From Escherichia phage LHE83, in sequence record OQ561750: a stretch of DNA of 64,000 bases, one strand, 5' to 3'. The notes beneath the pieces are model-generated. The model made no database searches, was not told where the DNA came from, and saw only the letters and a program-made list of their open reading frames with translations. The translations under genes were made by a program, and so were the position numbers. Shown piece by piece: positions 1,086 through 24,704 of the stretch. Position 1 is the first letter of the stretch. Each line of letters starts with the position of its first letter.

Positions 1086-2612
1086 TTATTCTACTTTAAT
1101 AATAAAAAGAACGGACATTGTCCATGGACGTGTTTCGTTGGCAATAAGACCTTCACTATTCAATGTGGTATGTCCATCACGGTTCCAAGGATCGGTGGTC
1201 TCAAAACCTTCGTTGGTATAATAACTACGGTTATCCCAGTCAAGGCCTTTACGAGTACCAACATATCCGGAGTTAGCGGTGTTACCAAAAGCGCCATAGT
1301 TATCATGTTCACCAAAACCACCAGCATGTTTATGATAACGTAATGCTTGGGCTTGAACGGAAGATTGCGGGAAAGAACCAACACCATTACCTAAACGGGC
1401 TTTACCTTTACCGTCTTCTCCTCGGTTACCGGCAATATGCGGGTTAACTTCGCCTTCAGAATATCCACCGACCATGTTAGCGCCACGAGGATATAATCCA
1501 CGGAAATCTGGAATAGCACCCCACCATCCCCAACGCCCACCAACAGCATTTAAATATGCACCACCAGTGTAAGTCCCACCTACACAAGCACGCCATTTAC
1601 CAGGTATATTACCTTCATTGCCACCCCACATGCAAATAGTACCCACCGGAACGCTATCTGATAATTGGTCATGGGTAACAACATCAACACCATTACGACG
1701 TAATGCTCCATTAACGTTTAAAGTACCCCATATTTCGCCGCCTGAAGTAGAAATAACGTTAGCATTATAAGCCAGCGCCGTATTACCATCGCCTTGGCCT
1801 ACAGTAGTAGATAAACGAACCAACCCAATACGTCCAGTATTACCTGTACGAGCTAACAAAGAAGCCGGTGTAACTGCGGCGGTATGGTCGGTACCATTAG
1901 ATACCATATCCCAACCTGCGAGTTTAATAATACCGCTTCGTTCTTCGGTGGAAGTTAATGTGGCTAATCCTGCCGGAGAAATAGCGATACCTACAGAAAG
2001 ATTTCCATTACCAACTTCAGCATTAGTCGCTAAACGAACTAAACCTTCATTTGTAGTCGTTGCCGTAGAATAAACCGGTAAAGCTGCTGTCGCTGCACCA
2101 ATTGCTTGCGATACTTTAAGTGGGGACATCGCTGTGGTATCATCGGTACCAGCTAATGCAGCAGGTGTAGTTGAAATCTTGATAACGCCTGTGGCGTTCT
2201 CTGTTGATAAACGGTTCTCAAATGTATAATCCATTACCGCTTTCAAAGAGGTTGCTACGATTGCGGCCTGGGGCTCTGTGCCTGCTATAGCTTCAGCGTT
2301 AGTAGCGTAACGGGTGATACCTACATAAGTTTCTGTTGCCTGAGTAGGAATATCTAAACGGGCTTTTAAAGTTGCTGGGGTCACTGCACTATAAGCATCC
2401 AATCCATCCATTACTTCTTGTGTTGTGGCCAGACGAATAATACCTTGGGATGTTTCTGTGGCTGAAGGAACATTACCTGTGACACCGATTAATGAAATAG
2501 TTGCCAATGCTTCTTGAACATTAGTAATATCAGGCGGGAAATTCGACCCAGTAGGGTCGAATGATTTGAATTCCGATTTATCACTAATGTGTTTTAGTGT
2601 GTTTGTTGACAT
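1086..2612 (-). CDS. 12: Short tail fibre protein gp12
   Basis: 508 aa; position after gp11 in conserved order; His-rich HKHAGGFGEHDNYG segment near C-terminus consistent with gp12 metal-binding receptor domain. Confidence 0.75.
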   Translation of the reverse strand: MSTNTLKHISDKSEFKSFDPTGSNFPPDITNVQEALATISLIGVTGNVPSATETSQGIIRLATTQEVMDGLDAYSAVTPATLKARLDIPTQATETYVGITRYATNAEAIAGTEPQAAIVATSLKAVMDYTFENRLSTENATGVIKISTTPAALAGTDDTTAMSPLKVSQAIGAATAALPVYSTATTTNEGLVRLATNAEVGNGNLSVGIAISPAGLATLTSTEERSGIIKLAGWDMVSNGTDHTAAVTPASLLARTGNTGRIGLVRLSTTVGQGDGNTALAYNANVISTSGGEIWGTLNVNGALRRNGVDVVTHDQLSDSVPVGTICMWGGNEGNIPGKWRACVGGTYTGGAYLNAVGGRWGWWGAIPDFRGLYPRGANMVGGYSEGEVNPHIAGNRGEDGKGKARLGNGVGSFPQSSVQAQALRYHKHAGGFGEHDNYGAFGNTANSGYVGTRKGLDWDNRSYYTNEGFETTDPWNRDGHTTLNSEGLIANETRPWTMSVLFIIKVE

Positions 2613-3277
2613 TAATATAATCTCTTATAGTAATATAAAGGAATCGTGCCGTTAACTGTACCACCTGCTAACGATTGGGTAGAGTTACCTAAGTATTCCC
2701 ACTTACCGTATCCAGCCCTTGGCTGTTGGACTATAGTATGGGAAATTGTACAACCCGATTGTTTATATGGTGAAAAAATATGATTCTGATAGTCATTGTA
2801 TTTAATATTCAAGGTAGATTGGTCTAAGGCATCAATAGCAGTTTCGGCCAAAATATAGCTATTAGCAATAGCGTCTAAAAACACATCATTTACTTTAGAT
2901 GCAACCAATACAGATGAATCGCCAACTAAGACCTCTACAGGAAGCCCAAACACTTTAATAATAACCGGGTCGCCAAGTTCACCGCCCGAAGAAATAGAAC
3001 CGGTAAATGTAATTTTATCAGATTGTTGGATAAATCCAGGTGCTCTGTTTTCTGTGGTAATAATAACAGAGTTCACAGGAAGCTCTGTTCTAAATGCAAT
3101 ATCATCTATTGCACTTTGGACCGTAGGAAAATAAACACCCTTCTGGGTTTGGTTTGCAGAAGGGCCACCAATAGGTCGTTGGTCAGCGACAGCAGTAGGC
3201 TTGTCACTGGTATAAGATAATTCCAAATAATCAGCTAAGCGGGATTTTAACCCGCTTTTCATTTCAGTTAAAGTCAT
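2612..3277 (-). CDS. 11: Baseplate wedge protein gp11
   Basis: 221 aa (T4 gp11 219 aa); start/stop overlap with gp10 and gp12; synteny. Confidence 0.7.
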   Translation of the reverse strand: MTLTEMKSGLKSRLADYLELSYTSDKPTAVADQRPIGGPSANQTQKGVYFPTVQSAIDDIAFRTELPVNSVIITTENRAPGFIQQSDKITFTGSISSGGELGDPVIIKVFGLPVEVLVGDSSVLVASKVNDVFLDAIANSYILAETAIDALDQSTLNIKYNDYQNHIFSPYKQSGCTISHTIVQQPRAGYGKWEYLGNSTQSLAGGTVNGTIPLYYYKRLY

Positions 3278-5088
3278 TATGCAATCCTCATCCAGCGATG
3301 AACAGTTAAGTATGGTGGTAGAGTATTAACCGGGATAGGAGTGGTTCCTTGAGCCTTATTAATACCGGCTTTATCTTCACGATATTTTGTATAAGCTGGT
3401 CCTTGTGAATCAGGGTCAACTAAACATCCACCTACAAAAATAGGGCCATCGTTATCAGCAATAAGGACTTTATCATCGGTATTAAGTTCAGGGATATTCT
3501 CATATTTCAAATTAGCCACATGAGCACCACCAGTACCACCGGCAGTTGACTGTGGAATACCAGCAGAATCCAGATCGTTATTATTTGCATTAAACAAAGA
3601 AGCCGCGTCTGGAGACCAACCTACCAAGAACACATCAGATAAACGCTTCCATGAACCAAAGCCCATATAAGTTTTAGGGTTATTAGGGTTCACCGTGTTC
3701 TCATAGATAGTTCCTATAGGGTAAATTAAATCAAAAAATGTTGCTGCTGTGTCTATTGTAATATTAGACGAGGCAACCGGCTCAACGTTAGGTGCAAAAG
3801 GATTATCTACATCAGTAATACGAACCTGGCCTGTTATATTAATAGATGGGCCTTTAGAAATATAGATGTTGTTGGTGTAATCCAAAATCTCATCAATTTC
3901 CATGGTAGTACCGATATCATTATTGTACCAAATTACTGTAAGAATATCACCATGTTCAAAGTTACGTCCAAATTCGATGGATTCAATCTTGTCTTCAGGA
4001 GTCAAATTAAAAATATAGTCTGATTTAGATTGGGTCCATTGACCACCTGCATTAAAACACTCGGTAGCAGTACGACCATCAGCACCTTCACAATAAAACG
4101 AAGGAAGTCCTGCCGTACCAGCTTGATGAAGTAATGTGCTATTCAGCATAACTTGGCAAGCATTTGGGTTGATAGGACTATTAACAGAAATATTCAAATC
4201 TGCGGCCGATATAACATGCGAAGTATTCAAATCAGCCACGAAAGAAGAACCAGGAACAGAAACGTTTTTAGTCAATTCTGAACTTTGGATTGTTATATCA
4301 CGGCGGTTATAAGAACTGCGCCATTGAGCAAGCCCGTCATTATATGATTTGATAATAACAGTATCACCTGCTTCACAAGGATATTTTAAACGGATGTCTT
4401 TACCATTCAAGGCAACCAATTCACCTGGTTGAGCACCCGGAGAACCGAACTCTGCAGTAGCCGCATCAAAAATATCATCAACACCGTAGAACAAATTGTT
4501 ACCACGTTGCGAAACGCTTAAACTTGCTACGTTATAAGAAAGCCCTGGGAAAATGTCTAGAAAATCTGTTTGGCCTTCAGTGGCAATAAACTGCTTAGTT
4601 GCTACAGTAGCGAGGTCGTTATTTGGAATACGGTTTACTTGCTTATTTTCAACGTATTCCCATCGTCCTGGGGCACAATAAACTAATTCAAGGTCCGAGA
4701 AGTTGCGAGCAATTTCTACTTGAGTAGCTGAACCCTTAATGGTATCACCCGTGGCAGGGATTAGGGTTACAGGGTTAGCTTGCCATGAGGAATACACGTC
4801 ACGTACACGGATAACAAAGTTATATTCTTCAGGAGAGCCTTTAGGAAGCTGAACGTTAATACGCCCACCTTGAGTATTAAGGGTATAGCTATGACCCATT
4901 ACGGCGTTCAACAAAGCACCATCTTCAGTAGAATGTTGTTTCCAAGCACCTGCTGCATGTGGGTTATTGCCATCGCCTAATTGGTAATAAAGCTCATTGA
5001 AGTTGTTATTAATTTTAAGACCACCTGCGCGCAGGTAATCACCGGACCCGTCATCAACAGCGGAACCTACTTTTAAGTCTTGTTTCAT
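3277..5088 (-). CDS. 10: Baseplate wedge protein gp10
   Basis: 603 aa (T4 gp10 602 aa); synteny, translational coupling to gp9 and gp11. Confidence 0.7.
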   Translation of the reverse strand: MKQDLKVGSAVDDGSGDYLRAGGLKINNNFNELYYQLGDGNNPHAAGAWKQHSTEDGALLNAVMGHSYTLNTQGGRINVQLPKGSPEEYNFVIRVRDVYSSWQANPVTLIPATGDTIKGSATQVEIARNFSDLELVYCAPGRWEYVENKQVNRIPNNDLATVATKQFIATEGQTDFLDIFPGLSYNVASLSVSQRGNNLFYGVDDIFDAATAEFGSPGAQPGELVALNGKDIRLKYPCEAGDTVIIKSYNDGLAQWRSSYNRRDITIQSSELTKNVSVPGSSFVADLNTSHVISAADLNISVNSPINPNACQVMLNSTLLHQAGTAGLPSFYCEGADGRTATECFNAGGQWTQSKSDYIFNLTPEDKIESIEFGRNFEHGDILTVIWYNNDIGTTMEIDEILDYTNNIYISKGPSINITGQVRITDVDNPFAPNVEPVASSNITIDTAATFFDLIYPIGTIYENTVNPNNPKTYMGFGSWKRLSDVFLVGWSPDAASLFNANNNDLDSAGIPQSTAGGTGGAHVANLKYENIPELNTDDKVLIADNDGPIFVGGCLVDPDSQGPAYTKYREDKAGINKAQGTTPIPVNTLPPYLTVHRWMRIA

Positions 5089-16557: not shown

Positions 16558-16565
16558 TATAAATA
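16558..16565 (+). promoter_or_regulatory. T4-type late promoter (TATAAATA) for gp4
   Basis: Exact TATAAATA 25 nt upstream of gp4 ATG, followed by AGGAGG SD. Confidence 0.6.
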
Positions 16566-16572
16566 ATATTAA

Positions 16573-16580
16573 TATTTATA
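16573..16580 (-). promoter_or_regulatory. T4-type late promoter (TATAAATA on minus strand) for gp53-wac operon
   Basis: Reverse complement reads TATAAATA about 28 nt upstream of gp53 start; divergent with the gp4 promoter. Confidence 0.6.
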
Positions 16581-20068: not shown

Positions 20069-20293
20069 ATGAAAACTTATCAAGAATTTATTACCGAAGC
20101 TAAAAGACATGAAGATGAACTGCCAATTGTTACAAAAACCTTTGATGGCACACTGGCTGATTTTAAAAAAGTCCCTAGTGATAAGCTTGCTAAATTGACT
20201 GGCTCTATCAATGAAAAAGATGGCAAGGTCACGTTTTCTGCTGGCGGCATAGCCAATCTTAAAAAACTTTTGAAAGCCGCTGGCGCTGAATAA
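20069..20293 (+). CDS. Internal-protein-like capsid protein (ipI locus), N-terminal capsid-targeting sequence MKTYQEFITEA
   Basis: 74 aa; N-terminus matches T4 internal protein CTS (MKTYQEFIAE); located next to 57B like T4 ipI. Confidence 0.6.
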   Translation: MKTYQEFITEAKRHEDELPIVTKTFDGTLADFKKVPSDKLAKLTGSINEKDGKVTFSAGGIANLKKLLKAAGAE

Positions 20294-20294
20294 A

Positions 20295-20567
20295 ATGAAA
20301 TCATACCAAGAATTTATCGCTGAATCTATTCTTAATGAAGAAGTAAAAATTAACAAATCTGTTAAGACCATGATTGATAATATAAATCATCTCTATAACA
20401 TCGATTTGACTAATCACGTAACTTTAGGCAATAAGCGAAACTTTTTTGTTTTTGATACTTCAGAACTCGACCAGAATCAAATTAACAATATTGAACGTTT
20501 TGCTAATGAAAAAGGGCTGCGCCACGAGACGGCTGGTTATAAAAAATATGCAATTTATTTAAAATAA
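20295..20567 (+). CDS. Second internal-protein-like gene (CTS MKSYQEFIAES)
   Basis: 90 aa; same CTS-like N-terminus, divergent body; 1-nt spacing after previous gene. Confidence 0.55.
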   Translation: MKSYQEFIAESILNEEVKINKSVKTMIDNINHLYNIDLTNHVTLGNKRNFFVFDTSELDQNQINNIERFANEKGLRHETAGYKKYAIYLK

Positions 20568-21228: not shown

Positions 21229-21519
21229 ATGCTATACGTTAAGGTTACTAATCCAGAGAATGGCTATAATTCAGACCAGGTTGCAGCAGAGCTACTGATT
21301 CGCAACTTTGGCAAAGGTGCTGTGCTTGATGTCCAACAGGTTAATATTGGTCGTAGTTCAAGCGACGTTAAACTAAAAGTTAATGGTCGCCGTTATAATT
21401 CTGTTAACTTTACTTTCTACACCGCAACTGAAAACAGATTGATCGAATACGACATCTTTAAAAATCCTTTGAAGATTGCTTCTATTAAACTTGATTACAT
21501 TAATATGTGGCCACAATGA
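21229..21519 (+). CDS. Hypothetical protein (96 aa)
   Basis: ORF immediately after previous stop (TAAATG). Confidence 0.45.
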   Translation: MLYVKVTNPENGYNSDQVAAELLIRNFGKGAVLDVQQVNIGRSSSDVKLKVNGRRYNSVNFTFYTATENRLIEYDIFKNPLKIASIKLDYINMWPQ

Positions 21520-21693
21520 ATCAAATTTGACCAGACTATTCCTAAAAATAGTAATATGCTTTAAGAGTAATGTGTTATTATTACTCTATCATTAATACCC
21601 TCTATTACCAAAGGTTCTTCCCTCAAAGAACCTTTCATAATAGACAAGGTCTATTAATCAAACTTACTTTACTTAATTTTATTTGAGGTGTTT

Positions 21694-21960
21694 ATGTTAG
21701 TATTAAAATTAGCTTTTTATGACCCGGCAACCAAGACAACCACTACCAAACGTTGTTCTATTTCGTATGAATGTCAATTTGGTGAAGTTGAGACCGACGG
21801 CGAGCCCTTTATGGCAATTGCCGATAGCACATTCGCTAAACCAAAAATAATTCCACTAGTTAACGCTGCGGCTTATCTGGTTGCTCCTGAAGAAATGACT
21901 TATCATACAATTCAGCACATGGCTAAAGATGATAATGCTCCTGCTGGATTTGTAGTTTGA
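21694..21960 (+). CDS. Hypothetical protein (88 aa)
   Basis: ATG after GAGG SD; ends 5 nt before tRNA. Confidence 0.4.
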   Translation: MLVLKLAFYDPATKTTTTKRCSISYECQFGEVETDGEPFMAIADSTFAKPKIIPLVNAAAYLVAPEEMTYHTIQHMAKDDNAPAGFVV

Positions 21961-21965
21961 TTTAA

Positions 21966-22039
21966 GGCCCTGTAGCTCAATGGTTAGCAGCAGTCCCCTC
22001 ATAAGGGAAAGGTTACCGGTTCAAATCCGGTCTGGGCCA
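21966..22039 (+). tRNA. tRNA with anticodon CAU (Met, or Ile2-type reading AUA as in the T4 tRNA-Ile)
   Basis: 74-nt cloverleaf: 7-bp acceptor stem (one U-U mismatch), anticodon loop CUCAUAA, T-arm ACCGG-TTCAAAT-CCGGT; position matches T4 tRNA cluster. Confidence 0.65.
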
Positions 22040-22080
22040 TATTTTAAGAACATAAATACTCTTAGAAATAGGAGATATTT

Positions 22081-22746
22081 ATGTTCCATTACACTTATAA
22101 AATAACAAACAAAATTAATAATAAAATCTATATAGGCGCCCATTCAACCGAAAATTTGAATGATGCATATTTTGGTTCTGGTAAACTCTTAAAAAGGGCC
22201 CAGGCCAAATACGGTATAGAAAATTTCTCTAAAGAAATATTAGAGTTCTTTGACGATAAAACCTCTATGTTTGAGTCAGAAAAGAATATTGTGACTAAAG
22301 AGTTTTTAAAGCGCCCCGATGTTTATAATTTGAAATTAGGTGGTGAAGGTGGTTGGGACCATTTAAACACTGAAGAATATTTAGATAAAAAGAAAGAAGC
22401 TTCCTTAAAAGGAGTTGCCGCTTTTAAAACCAGATTTGAGAACGACCCAGACCTTAAAGAAAAATATCGTAAAATGGGTTCAGAAAAGTTTAAACAACTT
22501 TGGGATAATCCTAAGTATAGAGAGAAATTTTCAAATACTAAATCTTTCTTGGGTAAGACCCATTCAGATGAAACCAAAAATAAAATGAAAGAATCTCACG
22601 CCAGAAATAAACATCAACAAGGTGAAAATAATTCCGGATACGGAAAAATGTGGATTCATTCTTTAGAAGAAAAAGTTTCTAAACGTATTAACAAAACGGA
22701 TATTATTCCTGAAGGTTGGAATAAAGGTCGTAAAATAAAATTTTGA
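22081..22746 (+). CDS. segB: GIY-YIG homing endonuclease, SegB-like, inserted in tRNA cluster
   Basis: 221 aa; N-terminal HYTYKITN...NKIYIGAHS...YFGSGK GIY-YIG pattern; basic NUMOD-like C-terminal repeats; same location as T4 segB. Confidence 0.6.
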   Translation: MFHYTYKITNKINNKIYIGAHSTENLNDAYFGSGKLLKRAQAKYGIENFSKEILEFFDDKTSMFESEKNIVTKEFLKRPDVYNLKLGGEGGWDHLNTEEYLDKKKEASLKGVAAFKTRFENDPDLKEKYRKMGSEKFKQLWDNPKYREKFSNTKSFLGKTHSDETKNKMKESHARNKHQQGENNSGYGKMWIHSLEEKVSKRINKTDIIPEGWNKGRKIKF

Positions 22747-22751
22747 ATTAC

Positions 22752-22826
22752 GTCCCGCTGGTGTAATGGATAGCATACGATCCTTCTAAGTTTGCGGTCC
22801 TGGTTCGATCCCAGGGCGGGATACCA
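22752..22826 (+). tRNA. tRNA-Arg (anticodon UCU), CCA encoded
   Basis: 75 nt; 7-bp acceptor stem, anticodon loop CUUCUAA, T-arm CCTGG-TTCGATC-CCAGG, 3-prime ACCA. Confidence 0.7.
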
Positions 22827-23205
22827 AATGAAGACTATTATATAGTCAAGCCGTCGTATGAAGACTGATTACCAGCATTCACCGGCGCAACAAACAAGAA
22901 ACCGGGTCGCTACCGGTAAGTCGTCGGACTGATGTTCCCTGTTTAAGGACCGGCATTAATAAATCTTTACGATTCGTTAATGTCCCCTTACATCACAACA
23001 GAAACGGCGCACAGAATTATCGATTCGAGGAAATATCTTTGCCGTAAGCCGAGTAGCGTTTTTGACGGAACGTTCGGATATGGTCGAGATATGGCCTTTT
23101 AAAAATATTGAGCGGCGTCAACTACTTAATAACCGGGTTCGAATCCCGGCGTTTCGTACAAACACTTGCCTAGCAGGTGGAACCCCGACAAGGTTACCCT
23201 AGGTT
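22827..23205 (+). ncRNA. ORF-free structured region after tRNA-Arg; candidate small stable RNA(s) analogous to T4 RNA C / RNA D
   Basis: About 380 nt with no ORF, higher GC than surroundings, tRNA-like T-arm element (CCGGG-TTCGAAT-CCCGG) near 23137-23155, ends at intrinsic terminator. Confidence 0.4.
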
Positions 23206-23206
23206 A

Positions 23207-23236
23207 AAGGCCCTTCCGAAAGGTTGGGCCTTTTTT
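23207..23236 (+). terminator. Intrinsic terminator (GGCCC...GGGCC + T6)
   Basis: GC hairpin followed by TTTTTT; identical copy at 23832. Confidence 0.65.
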
Positions 23237-23237
23237 G

Positions 23238-23245
23238 TATAAATA
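23238..23245 (+). promoter_or_regulatory. T4-type late promoter TATAAATA
   Basis: Exact TATAAATA 28 nt upstream of ATG 23274. Confidence 0.5.
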
Positions 23246-23273
23246 TGTAAGTTAAACTAACCTAGGAAATAAT

Positions 23274-23828
23274 ATGAAACTTTTAAAATATTTTAGTTGG
23301 GTTCTGTTGGTCCCACTAGATTTTATCTCTATGGTTCTGGCTGTTATCCTTGCACCATTTGTGGTTCCTTTCCACAATAAAAAGACAGGTAAATTACCGT
23401 ACGGCTTTGATTGGATGATGACATACGATAATCCAATTGACGGTGATAAAGGTCATATTAAACGTTGGGCTAACATCAGGAAAATGCCTGGTGGTGTTTA
23501 TCTCCAGAGGGTAGCTTGGCTATGGCGAAATAAAGCTTATAACTTTGCTTACCATAAACTTGGACGCGATTGTAGCTCAGAATTCCATTATCGTGGTAAT
23601 CCTGACGTTGAATCCGGTTCTCCTGATAAAGCTCATCATGGATGGTTATGGATGTGGAATGACGAAGCATGGGGAGTCTTTGCTTCAGTTCCGTATCTTA
23701 AAGTAGGTGGGATTACCTTTTACCTTCGTGTATACTGTGGTTGGAAACTTAAGAGTCTTTTGTCTCGTAAAATCCCTAAGGCTATGTTAGCCTTCCACAT
23801 AAACCCATTCCGGTTCTACAAGAACTGA
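23274..23828 (+). CDS. Membrane protein (184 aa), late-promoter driven, flanked by identical terminators
   Basis: N-terminal hydrophobic helix (WVLLVPLDFISMVLAVILAPFVVPF); Trp/His-rich body. Confidence 0.55.
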   Translation: MKLLKYFSWVLLVPLDFISMVLAVILAPFVVPFHNKKTGKLPYGFDWMMTYDNPIDGDKGHIKRWANIRKMPGGVYLQRVAWLWRNKAYNFAYHKLGRDCSSEFHYRGNPDVESGSPDKAHHGWLWMWNDEAWGVFASVPYLKVGGITFYLRVYCGWKLKSLLSRKIPKAMLAFHINPFRFYKN

Positions 23829-23831
23829 TTC

Positions 23832-23861
23832 TAGGCCCTTCCGAAAGGTTGGGCCTTTTTT
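23832..23861 (+). terminator. Intrinsic terminator, duplicate of the 23207 terminator
   Basis: Same GGCCCTTCCGAAAGGTTGGGCC + T-run sequence directly after stop codon. Confidence 0.65.
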
Positions 23862-23886
23862 GTTTCTAAAAAGTTTAAAAAAAGAT

Positions 23887-23915
23887 GTTTACTCTTTCGT
23901 AGAACATGATACTAT
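23887..23915 (+). promoter_or_regulatory. Early promoter (GTTTAC-N17-TACTAT) with TATAGACCTATCAA box
   Basis: Motifs upstream of ATG 23951. Confidence 0.55.
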
Positions 23916-23950
23916 AGACCTATCAAAACCACAGTGTGAAGGAGAGTAAA

Positions 23951-24214
23951 ATGGATAATTATGGTGAAGTGTTTAATTTCTTTATGAAATGCGTTCCTGA
24001 AGAATTTGGTGCTACTGTTAACGATATTAAAGTTATCGGTCCTGAACACCCGGTGTATGAAACCTATGCAGTAATGGGTAATGAAGATGGACAGTGGTAT
24101 ACAATTAAAGTTGTGATTAATATGTTCTCAGCTGAAGGTTACGCCAAATCGTCTACCAAAGTTTACCATGGTAATGATTTTGATGCAGAAAATTATTTCA
24201 ATAATATGAAATAA
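23951..24214 (+). CDS. Hypothetical protein (87 aa)
   Basis: ATG after GAAGGAGAG SD. Confidence 0.45.
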   Translation: MDNYGEVFNFFMKCVPEEFGATVNDIKVIGPEHPVYETYAVMGNEDGQWYTIKVVINMFSAEGYAKSSTKVYHGNDFDAENYFNNMK

Positions 24215-24217
24215 AAC

Positions 24218-24248
24218 GTTTACATGGGCTCATGATTAAGATATTATG
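24218..24248 (+). promoter_or_regulatory. Early promoter candidate (GTTTAC ... TATTAT) overlapping inverted repeat GGGCTCAT/ATGAGCCC
   Basis: -35 GTTTAC seen; -10 assignment uncertain (spacing about 19). Confidence 0.4.
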
Positions 24249-24272
24249 AGCCCATAATTTGAGGAGAACATA

Positions 24273-24671
24273 ATGAATATCGAAGATAAAGAAATGCAAG
24301 AGTTGTATAATTCATTAACACCTGAACAACAAAAATATGCCAAAGAACTAGAGAAAGCTCTTACTTTCAACTTGGCAAAAACTGATTGGGCCGCGATGTA
24401 TGAAGAAAAAACTAGATTAGAAATTGAAGCTGCTGAGAGAAATGAATGGGTTGTCGAAACCAAGATTTCTGATGGTGGTTGCTCTGTTGAGGTGTCAGCT
24501 GTAGTTAAAGGTACTCATGGCGAAAAATCATGGGGCTGGCATAATGAAGCAAACAAATGTATTGTTCTCTCAACGTCAAAAACTTATGGCCAAAGGGCTC
24601 CTGTATCCAAAGCTATTATTAAGCAAGCTCAATGGGAAGCCAATGAAATCTGCCTCGCAAAAATGAAATAA
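24273..24671 (+). CDS. Hypothetical protein (132 aa)
   Basis: ORF with GAGGAGAA SD. Confidence 0.45.
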
Positions 24672-24674
24672 AAT

Positions 24675-24704
24675 GTTTACAAACCTCAGAGGACAGGGTA
24701 TAAT
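24675..24704 (+). promoter_or_regulatory. Early promoter (GTTTAC-N18-TATAAT), -10 embedded in GGACA/TGTCC inverted repeat
   Basis: Consensus hexamers seen. Confidence 0.55.

Follow-up and report, generated by a model that had tools for sequence, protein, structure and literature searches.

A candidate late-transcribed accessory cassette bounded by terminator repeats in a T4-like phage

Morons of lambdoid phages were reportedly described in 2000 by Juhala et al. and by Hendrix et al. In T4-like phages, hyperplastic regions contain repeated copies of the PeSL, an element that combines a stem-loop terminator with a promoter (Arbiol et al. 2010, PMC2839356; Comeau et al. 2014, PMC4122927). Recombination among these copies removes, adds or exchanges individual genes, and experiments have detected the excised mini-circles (PMC2839356, PMC4122927). 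The published PeSL and PmSL carry early (sigma-70-like) and middle (Mot-box) promoters (PMC2839356, PMC4122927), and the 2010 PeSL paper nowhere uses the phrase "late promoter" (PMC2839356). Shuffling has also been described for the T4 internal-protein (IP) genes (Repoila et al. 1994, as cited in PMC4122927).

The window analysed here is a 64,000-nucleotide stretch of Escherichia phage LHE83 (OQ561750), and the region of interest is 95-97% identical to JS98-like T-even phages of the genus Dhakavirus. It contains a cassette of 625 bases, comprising a predicted late promoter, a membrane-protein gene and a terminator. By comparison with relatives, we consider it probable that this is an insulated, late-transcribed accessory cassette that is gained and lost at repeats, and that its product is a non-essential inner-membrane protein acting on the envelope. 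The features of the locus, numbered from the first base of the window, are as follows.

22081-22746, + strand: segB-like GIY-YIG homing endonuclease gene, between tRNA-Met and tRNA-Arg (Pfam GIY-YIG and NUMOD3; PHROG)
22752-22826, + strand: tRNA-Arg (UCU), last tRNA of the operon ended by copy 1 (ARAGORN, Rfam; 100% identical to T4)
22897-23012, + strand: rnaD homologue (blastn against T4 features, 86%)
23020-23158, + strand: rnaC homologue (blastn against T4 features, 97.8%)
23208-23238, + strand: repeat copy 1, predicted intrinsic terminator (hairpin 23209-23230, T-run 23231-23236), ending the tRNA/rnaD/rnaC operon
23238-23245, + strand: predicted T4-type late promoter box TATAAATA, exact, 28 nt before the ATG
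23264-23269, + strand: putative ribosome-binding site AGGAAA, read from the sequence; ATG at 23274
23274-23828, + strand: 184-aa DUF7338 gene (Pfam PF24027, phrog_2143)
23833-23863, + strand: repeat copy 2, predicted cassette-ending duplicated terminator (hairpin 23834-23855, T-run 23856-23861)
23888-23915, + strand: predicted T4-type early promoter of e.8 (TTTACT, 16-nt spacer, TACTAT), with copy 2 a PeSL-like element
23951-24214, + strand: e.8 homologue, the conserved right neighbour (81% nt identity to T4 e.8; annotated e.8 in JS98)

The segB-like gene, which shares 77.7% nt identity with T4 segB, is context and lies outside the cassette. On the other side, the e.8 promoter has a homologue in T4 and one annotated as a T4 early promoter in phage SA79RD. 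From this arrangement, the cassette appears to be inserted between the stem-loop and the early promoter of a composite element that ends the operon and starts e.8. Three further observations were made in the surroundings. The tRNA-Arg and rnaC homologues are 100% and 97.8% identical to T4, as against about 80% in the surrounding genes, and in JS98 the tRNA-Arg differs and rnaC is missing; this near-T4 stretch may stem from an exchange with a T4-type phage, possibly through endonuclease-linked conversion. Between tRNA-Arg and the rnaD homologue, about 65-70 nt (22827-22896) have no T4 counterpart. Downstream, a 22-nt repeat consisting of a stop codon and a GTTTACA early -35 box is found at 24203-24260 and 24660-24681; after the copy at 24203, an inverted repeat (atgggctcat ... 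atgagcccat) separates the -35 box from the -10 box, and the 24203-24260 region may be another promoter-plus-stem-loop linker.

The original prediction placed an identical terminator of about 30 nt on either side of the 184-aa gene, and this was borne out. The 31-nt direct repeat AGGCCCTTCCGAAAGGTTGGGCCTTTTTTGT is identical at 31/31 positions between 23208-23238 and 23833-23863, with a hairpin and T6 in both copies. The 22-nt hairpin core had 2 matches in the 64-kb window with 3 mismatches tolerated, and 0 occurrences in 100 shuffles of the sequence; on this absence from the shuffles, a chance origin of the 31-nt repeat was rejected. Both copies fold into a GGCCC/GGGCC stem with a U-U internal loop and a CC-GAAA-GG cap (GNRA-type loop), followed by T6, with folding energies of -17.8 and -16.0 kcal/mol (z ~ -3.3; 0/200 shuffles as stable). 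A simple terminator scan missed both hairpins because of the internal loop, and they were folded directly. With a stable, G+C-rich hairpin directly followed by a U-run, each copy is predicted to be an intrinsic terminator, and a homologous element carries a terminator annotation in phage SA79RD. An Rfam search of 21500-24300 returned two tRNAs only, with no family for the hairpin, rnaC or rnaD.

Comparison with T4 placed the two copies within a wider terminator family. In T4, the homologue of copy 1, GCCCCGACCGAAAGGTTGGGGC followed by T5, occupies the same position after rnaC as a single copy. Since T4 rnaC has this homologous terminator and no gene there, copy 1 appears to be the ancestral terminator of the tRNA/stable-RNA operon and would not have been brought in by the gene. 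The T4 rnaC terminator reads GCCCCGACC-GAAA-GGTTGGGGC and copy 1 of the window GGCCCTTCC-GAAA-GGTTGGGCC, while the T4 uvsY.-2 terminator, GGCCCTTCC-TTTTT-GGTTGGGCC, has the stem of the window with another loop. A stem of the T4 uvsY.-2 type combined with a loop of the T4 rnaC type points to exchange or conversion among members of the terminator family. An additional exact copy of the terminator, placed between convergent genes behind uvsY.-2, is found in all Dhakavirus genomes examined (1501-1532 in one stretch). The terminator is thus a small dispersed family with at least two cargo types between pairs of copies, and not a private duplication. Of the proposed terminator duplication, the exact pair flanking the gene stands, but copy 1 appears ancestral and a third locus exists after uvsY.-2. 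As a separate observation, the identical 22-nt hairpin was found with a different tail in unrelated G+C-rich metagenomic viral contigs (4085-4106; 547-568), probably reflecting convergence on a stable GAAA-loop hairpin.

An exact late promoter had been claimed between the first terminator and the gene. The box TATAAATA was found there at 23238-23245, sharing the last T of copy 1 and abutting its T-run. The number of such boxes in the window is not above chance (5 observed vs 7.7 expected). However, non-coding sequence makes up 8.7% of the window and wholly contains 4/5 of the boxes, each 5' of an ORF, while the fifth overlaps an ORF end; the lysozyme gene e (31441) is among the ORFs preceded by TATAAATA. 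Placement is a stronger argument than count for a functional late promoter here. The box is retained in JS98 (twice), VR5, Gaprivervirus VR20 and Mosigvirus KMB38 despite divergent leaders, and in Karamvirus CATAAATA stands in its place. In relatives, the same leader of terminator and late box precedes genes whose products begin MKTYNEFL. T4 internal proteins need late synthesis to enter proheads, and a late-box leader before internal-protein-like genes fits a working late promoter. The further claim, that late expression is unusual in this early region, was not sustained: a late promoter there is not rare in T-even phages, and gene e has one. Elsewhere in the window, a palindromic intergenic region (tagtgcctcc ... 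ggaggcacta) between divergent ORFs contains two TATAAATA boxes (16558-16580), one on each strand and separated by 15 nt; they are likely divergent late promoters.

To compare the rnaC-e.8 site among relatives, the order of its elements was recorded in each. The window and PSD9 share the order rnaC, terminator, late box, 184-aa gene, terminator, early promoter, e.8. E33, WG01 and QL01 have two additions 5' of the 184-aa gene, namely a 154-aa internal-protein-like gene and a different terminator. The internal-protein-like gene of E33 has the leader used by the 184-aa gene in the window, and in E33-type phages the 184-aa gene stands behind the different terminator, without a TATAAATA box of its own; in these phages it is not an autonomous unit. 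Phage 005 has the gene order of E33 but a JS98-type leader. JS98 and IME281 carry the 184-aa gene, a second terminator with TATAAATA, and then a 205-aa internal-protein-like gene, while in VR5 the 184-aa gene is fused to a 3' remnant of this second, internal-protein-like gene. An internal deletion in PSD2002 and IME341 has left the first 15 and the last ~50 nt of the 184-aa gene. In T4, a spacer of ~190 nt that contains neither a gene nor TATAAATA separates rnaC and its terminator from the e.8 early promoter. Among the Tequatrovirus matches listed, homology to the window stops at or shortly after the terminator (~23236-23256). Finally, ABTNLS3, also a Dhakavirus, has the left flank of copy 1, a single terminator and the right flank of copy 2. 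This is an exact empty site, and exactly the product expected from recombination between the repeats.

Seven states of the rnaC site were seen in all, and they indicate that the 184-aa gene is dispensable, variably present and interchangeable in order with a second cargo. Relatives with one terminator and no gene, the comparison proposed with the original prediction, thus exist in T4 and ABTNLS3. Conservation of the ORF at this position in all relatives, which was to count against an acquired unit, was not found: the gene is absent from T4, deleted in PSD2002 and IME341, and at another locus in Mosigvirus. A literature search on JS98, late promoter and tRNA returned nothing relevant.

Most JS98-like genomes and Gaprivervirus VR20 have the 184-aa gene at the rnaC site, and Karamvirus has it at the equivalent position. 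It may be old at this site, and the locus alone fits gain or loss. An alternative explanation is that the gene has long resided in the tRNA-distal region and was lost in some lineages, including T4, with the alike terminators being ordinary and nothing mobile. Consistent with such a history are the distribution just described, the ordinary composition of the cassette and the substantial dS (0.48) vs the JS98 copy. However, the gene order is swapped between E33 and JS98, and the repeat copies are identical at 31/31 positions despite the diverged gene between them. The findings in Mosigvirus, where the same unit occurs at rI in a minority of records and the site is mostly empty, and where homology between the genera stops exactly at the terminators, are also contrary to long residence. 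We consider this explanation quite unlikely.

In Mosigvirus KMB38, a 184-aa homologue (76% aa identity) lies directly after rI. The sequence upstream of this gene is CTAATCAAA-GCCCCTTCCGAAAGGTTGGGGC-TTTTTG-TATAAATA, and that downstream is CTAATCAAA-GCCCCTTCCGAAAGGTTGGGGC-TTTTTT. The rI site is filled in 23 Mosigvirus records and empty, and 621 nt shorter, in ~138. The empty site of NHEP10 contains one copy of the identical 22-mer, and that of SA79RD contains the same stem with another loop. When the window was compared with KMB38 by blastn, 23206-23877 aligned at 73.5% identity, exactly from terminator to terminator; the flanks of the aligned cassettes (rnaC vs rI) are unrelated, and blastn found nothing beyond. 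At its own rnaC site, KMB38 has an internal-protein-like gene between two terminators of the same family. The left flank CTAATCAAA is present at both KMB38 copies and absent from every sampled Mosigvirus empty site. A single crossover into a sampled empty site, for lack of CTAATCAAA, does not reproduce the KMB38 junction, and its origin then requires either that the copies were converted by one another or that the recipient is not among the sites sampled. Collectively, filled and empty sites at two loci and homology bounded by the terminators suggest that the cassette behaves as a self-contained unit. The claim of an autonomous accessory unit of terminator, promoter, gene and terminator is supported by the empty sites and the second locus.

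The segB-like gene could itself account for the presence or absence of the cassette, if a SegB-type endonuclease broke the tRNA region of a co-infecting phage and repair co-copied the cassette, the repeats being incidental. A segB homologue is located 530 bp upstream (22081-22746), and homing-endonuclease-linked transfer is a named route in T4-like phages (PMC4122927). The near-T4 tRNA-Arg and rnaC (100% and 98%), of which JS98 has a differing tRNA-Arg and no rnaC, are in keeping with such a transfer. However, the closest cassette carriers, PSD9 and E33, have no endonuclease gene at this place (a match covering the gene was found in AnYang and LQ5), the empty site of ABTNLS3 is cut exactly at the repeat, and no endonuclease gene adjoins the Mosigvirus rI site. 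Endonuclease-driven transfer as the cause of the pattern is in our judgement improbable, and the segB-like gene may be a helper in the spread of the region.

Under the preferred reading, an accessory cassette gained and lost at terminator repeats, copy 1 of the hairpin would stop early and middle transcription from the tRNA operon. Late in infection, phage-modified RNA polymerase would start at TATAAATA and transcribe the 184-aa gene, and copy 2 would end the late transcript, keeping the e.8 early promoter independent. The 31-bp direct repeats would serve as substrates for efficient phage homologous recombination. Recombination between them would delete the cassette precisely and leave one terminator. 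In the opposite direction, the cassette would enter at any terminator of this family, either by integration of an excised circle, a postulated intermediate, or by exchange with another phage during co-infection. The genomes compared show precise loss at the repeats and, between loci, homology bounded by the terminators, and from these we infer recombination as the likely mechanism. The product would be made late and would act most likely on the cell envelope, in lysis timing or in the protection of released progeny.

The gene had been described as encoding a 184-aa membrane protein, and one transmembrane segment was indeed identified. Hydropathy analysis detected a single strongly hydrophobic segment at about residues 8-33, corresponding to one transmembrane helix, and residues 2-33 are helical in the AlphaFold model (pLDDT 95.5). 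Beyond this N-terminal helix lies a basic, Trp-rich domain of ~150 aa. Across the family, the N-terminal flank has a charge of ~ +2.5 and the first 15 residues past the helix ~ +0.2; by the positive-inside rule, the N-terminus is probably cytoplasmic and the domain periplasmic, although the net charge of the domain, ~ +10, weakens the periplasmic assignment. The gene is under strong purifying selection (dN/dS 0.027-0.13). The GC content of the cassette is ordinary (40.4% vs 39.3% for the window), and a foreign origin was rejected as far as base composition is concerned.

Residues 1-183 match PF24027 with E 1e-62 and 211 bits, vs a gathering cut-off of 27. A profile search of 1.84 billion proteins returned 951 clusters, with all homologues among the matches listed being ~90-290 aa long, and the ten longest homologues, when scanned, had no extra Pfam domain. 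No sequence or fold relative was found among solved structures, and a literature search on DUF7338 found no papers. The family is widespread in virulent (enterobacterial) myoviruses. DUF7338 genes were also repeatedly associated with tRNA clusters, in Felix O1, Dhakavirus, Gaprivervirus and Karamvirus. The Felix O1 homologue, ORF109, lies within a tRNA array (region 2407-3142 of its stretch), with gaps of 18 nt to the preceding tRNA-Arg and 8 nt to the following tRNA-Gln, and has no terminator or promoter of its own. tRNA genes may be recombination anchors for the DUF7338 gene.

Two readings of the function of the product were weighed. One is a lysis protein, either a holin or a regulator of lysis inhibition. 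The predicted late promoter and the layout of one transmembrane helix followed by a larger domain would suit such a protein, and the layout of the T4 holin T, a transmembrane helix and then a larger domain, is loosely similar. The gene also adjoins rI in Mosigvirus; this adjacency, however, is explained by the terminator there. Two database records name homologues "holin", but the label was traced to an explicitly speculative statement (PMC9120918) and was rejected as evidence. The protein has one membrane segment, as in a holin, and was found to have neither similarity to a known holin family (Pfam returned DUF7338 only) nor linkage to an endolysin; no structural match was obtained, and the lysozyme gene e is 7.6 kb away. 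Further, the gene is dispensable and missing from most T-even phages, which lyse normally. A role in lysis of this kind is doubtful.

The other reading is that the product alters or masks an envelope component, resulting in superinfection exclusion or in less adsorption of progeny to infected cells and debris. It is consistent with the combination of a membrane anchor and a basic, Trp-rich domain, and with the spread of the family among virulent enterobacterial myoviruses. The homologue in a Chitinivorax prophage directly follows the genes for the tail fibre and its chaperone and is the final gene, a prophage-end position that is typical of conversion genes in P2- and Mu-like prophages; in other phages it stands alone, in the orientation opposite to its neighbours. 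The known T4 exclusion proteins are made early, however, and not late, and no family, defence-system or fold match backs any activity. We hold envelope masking as a tentative possibility.

A broader and speculative proposal, which we regard as rather unlikely in full, is that the terminator family is a dedicated docking site for small late-gene cassettes moving between rnaC and rI and between T-even genera, and that DUF7338 is an envelope protein of new fold, with a late role in lysis control or progeny protection, common to T4-like, Felix O1-like and jumbo myoviruses. If true, this would be a late-promoter counterpart of the PeSL mini-circles, with DUF7338 and internal-protein-like genes as cargoes. 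The locus offers a clean natural case of small regulatory repeats driving gene turnover in T4-like phages. It is also a convenient test bed: a 0.6-kb unit, filled and empty sites in two genera, two cargoes and two landing sites. DUF7338 is flagged as a widespread, conserved, predicted late membrane protein that could be taken up in studies of lysis or superinfection in therapeutic coliphages.

This kind of element is already known; what is new is the late-promoter version, the terminator family at two loci and in two genera, and the widespread cargo protein. The T4 operon of tRNAs and species 1 RNA has in its terminator the positional and sequence homologue of copy 1, but as a single copy with neither TATAAATA nor a gene after it. 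The likeness to IP gene shuffling lies in the second cargo, which in E33, JS98 and KMB38 starts MKTYNEFL or MKSYAEFL, resembling the capsid-targeting starts MKTYQEFITE and MKSYQEFIAE; the cargo of the window, in contrast, is a membrane protein without an IP-like N-terminus. Elsewhere in the window, at the ipI position, two tandem small ORFs (20069-20293 and 20295-20567) begin MKTYQEFITE and MKSYQEFIAE, the signature start of T4 internal head proteins.

As in a moron, an extra gene with what appear to be its own promoter and terminator lies between genes that are adjacent in T4 and ABTNLS3. The closest relatives, the Tevenvirinae, are strictly virulent. Unlike a moron, the cassette resides in a virulent phage, with no prophage expression or benefit to a lysogen; its promoter is of the phage-late type and not host-constitutive, and its GC content is not atypical (40.4% vs 39.3%). 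As with the PeSL, copies of the element flank insertions, deletions and swaps between relatives, the inserted gene would be transcriptionally separate, and copy 2 with the e.8 early promoter (23888-23915) is a typical element. In contrast to the PeSL, copy 1 is joined to a late TATAAATA box, with no sigma-70-like early or Mot-box middle promoter, and the linker is one nearly invariant terminator family with few copies per genome. Dhakavirus has these copies at rnaC, behind the cassette and behind uvsY.-2, and Mosigvirus has them at rI and rnaC. The idea of a terminator-promoter linker is thereby extended from early and middle to late promoters.
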